From NCBI GenBank assembly GCA_963842885.1, contig CAWJIE010000004.1, forward strand, positions 256,001 through 320,000: DNA of 64,000 nucleotides. The letters are read 5' to 3'. The notes under the pieces are model-generated. The model ran no database searches. It saw nothing but the letters and a program-made list of their open reading frames with translations, and was not told where the DNA came from. Positions 62,251-62,536 of this stretch are shown piece by piece. The stretch comes from an uncultured Nitrososphaerota archaeon. Lineage in GTDB: Archaea > Thermoproteota > Nitrososphaeria > Conexivisphaerales > DTJL01. Made by a program: the position numbers and the translations under genes. The stretch's first letter is position 1. Each line of letters starts with the position of its first letter.

Positions 62251-62354
62251 GAACAGGATTTCGAGCATTAGTATCATCTCACACGTGGGATAGATATGTC
62301 TGGTTCTGAACTAACGACATGTGTCAGATTGGATTCTAAGAGCTTCTGAAAAGG

Positions 62355-62467
62355 AGCCCCGGGCGGGATTTGAACCCGCGGTCTCTTCCTCTTTGTATCG
62401 AGTTTACCAAGGAAGCGCATTCGACCGCTATGCTCTCCAGCCTCGGGCACTGACGAGGTACCGGGGC
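62355..62467 (-). tRNA. tRNA-Thr(GGT) with two introns (25 nt at 8/9, 14 nt at 37/38)
   Basis: Removing 62435-62459 and 62391-62404 gives a perfect cloverleaf: GCCCCGG TA GCAT AGCGGTCGA ATGC G CTTCC TTGGTAA GGAAG AGACC GCGGG TTCAAAT CCCGC CCGGGGC T. Confidence 0.9.
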
Positions 62468-62536
62468 CTTCCGGGGCTCTTGAAGCCACGACCCAATGGG
62501 AGTTTTTAAGAATTTCGACCGAGGCTGACCGGGTCG

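Follow-up and report, generated by a model that had tools for sequence, protein, structure and literature searches.

The window analysed here (the whole 64,000-nt stretch of DNA, G000:C4:256001–320000) belongs to a 2.03-Mb, 11-contig, 87%-complete archaeal assembly (genome G000) and carries a tRNA-Thr(GGU) gene on the minus strand at 62467–62355 that, as read from the sequence, contains two inserts, one of 25 nt between positions 8 and 9 and one of 14 nt between positions 37 and 38. The gene and its flanks are composed as follows, from upstream to downstream.

62503–62509, minus strand: TATA-like box TTAAAAA, read from the sequence and conserved in orthologues
62471–62479, minus strand: leader copy (putative decoy) of the 5′ acceptor strand, GAGCCCCGG, complementary to C66–C72, U73 and position +1
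62468–62470, minus strand: spacer AAG from the leader copy to G1, 3–5 nt long and variable in sequence among Thr orthologues
62460–62467, minus strand: exon 1, G1–U8, RNA GCCCCGGU (DNA GCCCCGGT), invariant in 15 of 15 sequences
62435–62459, minus strand: intron 1, 25 nt, ACCTCG...CTGGAG, between U8 and A9, holding the inner stem CCUCG/CGAGG, the central-helix strand CUGG and the bulge AG
62405–62434, minus strand: exon 2, A9–A37, comprising the D arm, the 5′ half of the anticodon arm and the anticodon GGU (sequence and Rfam)
62391–62404, minus strand: intron 2, 14 nt, after GGTA at the canonical 37/38 position (sequence; a 16-nt anticodon-loop insertion in the Rfam match)
62355–62390, minus strand: exon 3, A38–C72 and the discriminator U73 (sequence and Rfam)
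62349–62352, minus strand: T run TTTT, 3 nt past U73, read from the sequence as a likely terminator

Exon 2 reads AGCAUAGCGGUCGAAUGCG-CUUCC-UUGGUA (starting AGCATAG at the DNA level on the minus strand) and exon 3 reads A-GGAAG-AGACC-GCGGG-UUCAAAU-CCCGC-CCGGGGC-U, the gene ending ...CCGGGGC-T at 62355. Removal of both inserts leaves a clean cloverleaf with a 7-bp acceptor stem, a 4-bp D stem (G10–C25 to U13–A22), a 5-bp anticodon stem closing the 7-nt loop UUGGUAA, a 5-bp T stem with the T loop UUCAAAU, and U8, A14 and U73 in place; the gene is a tRNA (Rfam RF00005) of the isoacceptor Thr(GGU). An earlier sequence-only reading of this DNA had placed a 25-nt insert at 62435–62459 between U8 and A9 and a second, 14-nt intron at 37/38, and had claimed that cutting after the second bulge base at both sites restores a perfect cloverleaf; the first insert lies exactly there on the minus strand, the second is present at 62404–62391, and the cuts give that cloverleaf once both inserts are taken out. 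The 37/38 insert forms three of the four central-helix pairs here and all four in the orthologue of genome G004. A split tRNA is excluded: all exons fit into 113 nt between a single TATA-like box and a single T run. Also in the window, at positions 1–212 on the plus strand, is an archaeal RNase P RNA of which the 3′ part is present, the window beginning inside it (127 bits to Rfam RF00373, model positions 82–288).

That standard scanners may miss such a gene had been anticipated, and they do: ARAGORN found three other tRNAs in the window and missed tRNA-Thr(GGU), also when run genome-wide with intron search, and the match to the Rfam tRNA model RF00005 is limited to model positions 9–63 (34.7 bits, cut-off 29). 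No second Thr(GGU) gene was found by BLAST against the 87%-complete genome itself, which returned only T-arm fragments elsewhere. The anticodon-arm pattern of the gene occurs once in the genome, and GGU stands in the anticodon loop of just one of 47 tRNA-like regions, namely tRNA-Thr(GGU); this 47-region check was used in place of a loose genome-wide scan for GGU anticodon loops, which gave noise only. The question whether this is the only Thr(GGU) gene is thus answered by BLAST, pattern search and tRNA-like regions alike: no other is detected in the 87%-complete assembly.

The 8/9 insert can be folded as a motif of the bulge–helix–bulge (BHB) type that borrows the 5′ acceptor strand. Its outer helix (h) has only two base pairs (G1–C11 and C2–G10), its central helix here consists of C3–G, C4–G, C5×U and G6–C, and the junctions fall after the second base of its two 3-nt bulges, G7 U8|A and A G|A9. 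This arrangement (that is, the outer helix, the central helix with a C:U mismatch, the bulges and the CCUCG/CGAGG stem) had been drawn in the sequence-only reading and is correct on the sequence. Among 15 Thr sequences (alignment A1), the outer helix forms and the bulge geometry is possible in all 15 (by eye, the geometry is also possible in Asn, Arg and Ser genes), and the central pairs C3–G, C4–G and G6–C form in 14–15. The third central pair, at C5, forms in 4 of 15, those with CGGG, and is mismatched in the other 11 (C×U in the window), so the motif is relaxed in most Thr sequences, including that of the window. The inner stem (h′) reaches up to 5 bp and includes a G–C to A–U compensatory change, and in the shortest 8/9 introns the loop is closed by one to three pairs, that is, in bulge–helix–loop form. 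On this comparison, the 8/9 motif is best described as a probable relaxed BHB on the 5′ acceptor strand that is conserved, a strict 4-bp central helix not being general. Three other placements were discarded: a 9/10 register for the Thr insert, which gives the same product with zero central helix; a 7/8 register for the Arg insert, in whose genes the base before A9 is U or C; and a second BHB for an EndA cut at −1/+1, because the spacer varies from 1 to 5 nt.

The insert is present in 15 distinct related sequences (8 family genomes and 7 further metagenome sequences) at lengths of 14–25 nt: 25, 22 and 23 nt for members of the genus, against 17, 15, 16 and 14 nt across three further genera. Every genome of the genus or family that matched over the 5′ part has it between U8 and A9. 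The metagenome scan returned 88 stretches, 14 of them tRNA-like, and 13 of those were the tRNA-Thr(GGU) gene, yielding the 7 new distinct sequences. In the alignment, the exons are invariant or nearly so and the intron loop drifts. Reads lacking the insert had been named as evidence that would speak against the intron; DNA contigs of four public metagenome runs from two studies (labelled peat and freshwater) all cross 62355–62480 with the insert intact, showing point differences and zero deletions or joints; among the public runs listed for this stretch, none was of RNA. The retention of the insert site in 15 sequences, together with the compensatory change and the intact contigs, indicates more than chance. 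A covariance model (R1) gave 117–148 bits over 120–131 nt in 8 of 9 family genomes, with zero matches in the family genome G003. In three other families of the order (27 genomes), its best matches span only 80–83 nt in 26 genomes, with no match in G032, so those genomes carry no such Thr intron; one 106-nt match among the 26 proved on inspection to be without the 8/9 intron. R1 is unfit as a detector of the architecture, because intron-less Thr tRNAs score well with their real strand aligned to the copy, and it was used only to tell long from short matches within the order. Intron-less Thr(GGU) genes were found in 6 genomes of two other families of the class.

The genome encodes two EndA genes (183 aa on G000:C5 and 193 aa on G000:C4), each with both the PF01974 and PF02778 domains. 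The 193-aa protein is closest to the M. jannaschii enzyme 1a79 (E 2e-25) and has Pro where the catalytic His aligns, as would be expected of a structural β subunit. The 183-aa protein is closest to the α chains of A. pernix, S. tokodaii and P. aerophilum (best PDB match 3p1z_B, E 8e-45) and has K-P-K aligned to K44-P-R46 of the Crenarchaea-specific loop (CSL). On these alignments, an α/β EndA of the broad-specificity type is encoded, which should be able to cut relaxed motifs beyond 37/38. According to the excerpted text of the relevant study, the CSL confers cleavage of non-standard and bulge–helix–loop introns (PMC3241643). The 8/9 intron would then be of a known kind (that is, a BHB intron handled by a broad-specificity EndA) with a motif that borrows the 5′ acceptor strand, and its splicing is predicted.

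Three nucleotides upstream of G1 stands a second version of the 5′ acceptor strand, two bases longer. This leader copy, GAGCCCCGG, is the exact complement of C66–C72, U73 and +1 (9 bp). Across the Thr alignment it is paired in 134 of 135 cells, four pairs change, and only to G–U, and all three internal substitutions (C to U twice, A to G once) are kept as G–U; the copy persists in four genera among which spacer and intron loop drift. It begins 24 nt after the last base of TTAAAAA (62509–62503), and the Asn, Arg and Gln copies begin 22–26 nt after their own A/T boxes, a distance from the TATA box at which archaeal transcription usually begins. The first base of the TATA-like motif lies 42 nt before G1 in Thr and 44 nt in Asn (regular expression) and 37 nt in Arg and 38 nt in Gln (by eye), compared with a median of 34 nt in 14 other tRNAs; as the expression matched at only 14 of 38 other tRNAs, this promoter-spacing argument is weak and partly by eye. 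The TATA spacing hints that the leader copy may lie within the transcript. A hairpin-capable, genus-conserved stretch, GGCUUCAAGAGCC (window 62481–62493, minus strand), overlaps the start of the copy and lies mostly upstream of the predicted start site.

The Thr gene is not alone in this arrangement. Four tRNAs of the genome with an intron motif on the 5′ strand carry a copy 1–4 nt upstream of position 1, with leader:3′-strand helices of 9 bp in Thr and Asn, 8 bp in Arg and 7 bp in Gln. The three further genes, which came from the other poorly matched tRNAs of the genome, are as follows.

G000:C5:44076–44211 (about), minus strand: tRNA-Asn(GUU), with a 22-nt insert at 8/9 and the leader copy GCGCUGCCG
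C4:360440–360569: tRNA-Arg(CCU), with an 18-nt insert at 8/9 and a leader copy
C5:111822–111967: tRNA-Gln(CUG), with a 21-nt insert at 10/11 (central helix using C5–U8) and a leader copy

The tRNA-Asn(GUU) gene has, by eye, at least two further anticodon-arm inserts, at about 31/32 and 39/40. Leader:3′-strand pairing over a 45-nt leader amounts to at most 6 bp in 32 of 33 other tRNAs of the genome, the exception being a second copy of tRNA-Ala(CGC) (G000:C5:2864–2940, minus strand) whose leader ATGGGCGG pairs over 8 bp, 2 nt before G1, in a gene without an 8/9 intron. No orthologue of this second tRNA-Ala(CGC) was found in the relatives; its leader helix may be the relic of a lost intron, or chance. 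The intron-less tRNA-Gln(UUG) (G000:C5:238426–238498, plus strand) has AGCUUG one nucleotide before position 1 (6 bp including two G–U), which may be a decayed copy related to that at tRNA-Gln(CUG). Scanner output was irregular at other loci, too: ARAGORN miscalls the tRNA-Asn(GUU) region as a tRNA-Asp with a 351-nt intron and, with intron search over the whole genome, reports several tRNAs with implausible introns of 137–2480 nt, which are likely false joins around multi-intron genes.

Among the relatives, copy and intron occur together. A leader copy of 6–9 bp accompanies all 32 intron-bearing sequences (Thr 15, Asn 6, Arg 4, Gln 5, Ser 2), which represent about six independent events (five tRNA types or origins and one loss) because kin share ancestry; in the intron-less orthologues, 14 of 14 have only 3–5 bp of leader:3′-strand pairing. 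By isoacceptor, the distribution is as follows.

Thr: intron and copy in 15 of 15 sequences (8–9 bp); neither in 6 of 6 intron-less orthologues (4–5 bp)
Asn: intron and copy in G000, G002, G003, G004, G005 and G006; neither in G001 (same genus), G009 and G010
Arg: intron and copy in the four genus genomes with a match; neither in G005 and G006
Gln: intron (10/11) and copy in the five family genomes viewed, a sixth, G004, having matched and been left out; neither in G009 and G010
Ser(UGA): intron and copy in G005 and G006; neither in the genome of the window

In each case the copy matches the acceptor sequence of its own tRNA. The tRNA-Ser(UGA) genes of two sister genera (G005 and G006) have a 14- or 15-nt 8/9 intron, a perfect CGGG/CCCG helix and an 8-bp copy, UGCCGGGG. 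In the Asn gene of G001, the 13-nt copy-plus-spacer and the 22-nt intron are both precisely missing with the flanks and other introns kept, and the Thr and Arg genes of the same genome still have both intron and copy. The Asn copy of G006 covaries with its tRNA: it follows the tRNA's own C–G to U–A change, its U pairing with A68. Imperfect copies occur at the Asn gene of G005 (one C×A) and at the Gln gene of the genus (one U×C). Transfer RNAs with D-loop or anticodon-arm introns are without a copy. In another family of the order, the tRNA-Glu(CUC) of G009 (L224:107–213, plus strand) shows a tandem GCTCCGG-CGACG-GCTCCGG followed by U and an 18-nt insert before A9; the minimum-energy fold has its leader copy paired to the 3′ strand, and no canonical BHB could be drawn for it, the 3′ end of the intron complementing the copy/spacer junction instead.

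The sequence-only reading had held that the BHB competes with the acceptor stem, and folding of 30 precursors bears this out: without the leader, the acceptor stem has a mean probability of about 0.94 and the BHB helix about 0 (2 of the 30 rows in this leaderless run being anchored on the upstream copy), and the 113-nt Thr precursor forms the acceptor stem. With the leader, the leader helix reaches 0.97 (1.00 for the Thr gene of the window) and the acceptor stem falls to 0.006. For 26 of 30 precursors the energy favours the state combining the leader helix and the BHB (mean −3.2 kcal/mol), and the canonical central helix attains a probability of at least 0.15 in 10 of 30, only with the leader. 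The minimum-energy fold of the 130-nt Thr precursor (−54.0 kcal/mol, z −2.4) contains the leader helix and, on the real 5′ strand, a hairpin in a register shifted by one base relative to the canonical BHB. For the Thr gene of the window and for the Asn genes, the canonical BHB register has a probability of about 0, the shifted register being preferred by the energy model, and the enzyme would have to select the canonical one. In these models, the leader copy, which had gone unseen in the sequence-only reading, appears to resolve the competition between BHB and acceptor stem. The leader helix still wins after in-silico splicing (0.95 versus 0.03), so that RNase P would need either a minor conformer as its substrate or a shift of the balance through tertiary folding, and removal of the leader would presumably have to pull the equilibrium.

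On the basis of these observations, we suggest that the gene is a working two-intron tRNA-Thr(GGU) of a Nitrososphaeria archaeon from peat or soil, the only one detected in the genome, and that the leader copy acts as a decoy for the 3′ strand that frees the 5′ strand for the BHB and tethers the 8-nt exon; we give this pathway, as a whole, a probability of about 60%. The primary transcript would start at or just before GAGCCCCGG and carry the two introns. The leader copy would pair with the 3′ acceptor strand, U73 and +1 (9 bp), so that the real 5′ strand (G1–G7) would be kept out of the acceptor stem and be free to form a relaxed BHB with the 3′ end of the 8/9 intron and G10–C11. The α/β EndA would then cut after U8 and before A9, with the leader:3′-strand helix holding the 8-nt 5′ exon to the body until ligation, after which the real strand would displace the copy, RNase P would remove the leader and the mature tRNA would form. 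With the copy as both decoy and tether, splicing before RNase P would be enforced. The anatomy of the sequence, its conservation, the strict joint occurrence of copy and intron, the folding switch in the predictions and the genes for the enzymes are in evidence, whereas transcription of the copy, the cuts, the tethering, the order of steps and the strand exchange are the parts of this pathway that we infer from sequence and folding models.

The copy could instead have no role, the 8/9 intron being real and spliced and the copy hitch-hiking as a by-product of intron origin or of a local tandem duplication. Copy and real strand do form a short tandem repeat, which slippage makes easily, an intron-less tRNA-Ala(CGC) shows a comparable leader helix, and some copies are imperfect. 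However, in Thr, Asn, Gln and Ser the pairing of the copy runs on beyond the 7-nt repeat to include N73 and +1, the three internal substitutions of the Thr copies all preserve wobble pairing, and four genera retain the copy even as spacer and intron loop drift. The Asn copy of G006 covaries with the 3′ strand, in the Asn gene of G001 copy and intron are missing together, and a target-site duplication would flank the insert, whereas the copy sits wholly upstream. We therefore regard a passive copy as unlikely. Somewhat more improbable, in our estimate, is a copy that serves mainly as a timing lock, blocking RNase P and tRNase Z (or CCA addition or export to translation) until the intron is out, with the BHB forming unaided. 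The stability of the leader helix before and after splicing (0.97 and 0.95) would fit a block on end processing, and the canonical BHB register of the window's Thr gene is disfavoured by the energy model even with the leader; yet some unmasking would be needed anyway, given an acceptor stem at 0.94 and a central BHB helix near 0 without the leader, and the rise of the central helix to at least 0.15 in a third of the precursors (10 of 30) depends on the leader. A pure lock should, moreover, serve other introns just as well, yet no copy accompanies introns of the D loop or anticodon arm.

Two further explanations deny the intron as drawn. The insert might be kept, the gene being a pseudogene or the mature tRNA having an expanded connector between acceptor and D arm, as the mismatch in the central helix and the chance that another Thr(GGU) gene is unassembled in an 87%-complete assembly would allow. 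Against such retention, which we consider very improbable, the exons are (nearly) invariant across four genera with the insert varying in length (14–25 nt) and loop and keeping its motif-forming ends, no other Thr(GGU) gene is found in the genome, and the promoter-like box and T run are conserved; continuity between U8 and A9 is also needed for the tRNA core. Least probable of all is that the upstream copy is the true 5′ acceptor strand and the downstream one part of a single larger intron: both can pair with the 3′ strand, the upstream helix being the longer, but orthologues differ in the base that follows the upstream copy (A, T or C), so that position 8 would not be the near-universal U, the base before A9 in Arg is U or C, which excludes a 7/8 reading, and in Thr the inner stem could not begin with the base that follows the upstream bulge.

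The decoy-and-tether reading has partial counterparts among known systems. Like the non-canonical BHB introns of other archaea (Crenarchaeota/Thermoproteales, Thaumarchaeota and Asgard), the inserts described here are short (14–25 nt), end in two 3-nt bulges around a 4-bp helix, which has a mismatch in most of the Thr sequences, can occur several to a gene and are accompanied by an α/β EndA with a specificity loop; unlike them, the central helix is taken from acceptor bases 3–6, so that the RNA cannot take up the splicing fold and the tRNA fold at once, and a leader element accompanies the intron. In ordinary pre-tRNAs, pairing of the leader with the 3′ end changes the RNase P substrate; compared with such leader–trailer or leader–acceptor pairing, the present copy spans the whole acceptor strand in register and is linked to a single class of intron. 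In the split and tri-split tRNAs of Nanoarchaeum equitans and Caldivirga maquilingensis, as presented in the excerpted sources, sequence outside the mature tRNA pairs and holds exon pieces for BHB formation and ligation (PMC3293823, PMC4390854), much as the leader helix would hold the 8-nt exon to the tRNA body, whereas here there are one gene and one transcript, and the helper pairs with the mature 3′ acceptor strand and mimics an exon. The circularly permuted tRNAs of Cyanidioschyzon merolae and Thermofilum pendens similarly build the motif with flanking sequence and, in the portions of the reports consulted, are spliced before RNase P and tRNase Z act (PMC4033280, PMC3218864), but the exon order here is normal and a circular intermediate is unneeded. 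The non-canonical archaeal positions named in the excerpted text of a review are 3/4, 20/21, 22/23, 25/26, 29/30, 30/31, 45/46, 53/54, 56/57 and 59/60 ‘etc.’ (PMC4090602), and the acceptor-stem position 3/4 at least is already in print in such excerpts (PMC4090602, PMC12397907). No mention of an 8/9 intron or of a leader copy was found in the partial texts searched, a body of literature that stops short of the primary intron catalogues and supplements, so that 8/9 may be listed there; as far as could be seen, the coupling of intron and leader mimic is undescribed.

For this genome, the case exposes a gap in annotation: standard scanners miss or truncate the one tRNA detected for ACC/ACU codons, and they truncate or miscall at least three others, genes of a kind that a search for tandem acceptor-strand copies would find. 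The order of processing that the pathway implies is EndA and ligase first and RNase P afterwards. More broadly, the case would illustrate a way for a tRNA to accommodate an intron when the fold needed for splicing and the mature fold rule each other out, namely through a helper outside the mature RNA, and it yields a testable rule on where archaeal tRNA introns can persist. We tentatively extend this to a general proposal, to which we assign rather less than even odds, in which 8/9 and 10/11 introns are made spliceable by a leader mimic of the 5′ acceptor strand, a cis-acting RNA chaperone and tether of a sort not recognised before, and in which such introns arise or persist only with a mimic. 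If this is true, the mimic, by taking up the 3′ acceptor strand, would turn the precursor away from the tRNA fold towards the splicing fold, keep the very short 5′ exon in position and make splicing precede RNase P, tandem copies of the acceptor strand would serve as a sequence signature for hidden tRNA genes, and the need for a mimic would explain the rarity of introns at the junction of acceptor and D arm.
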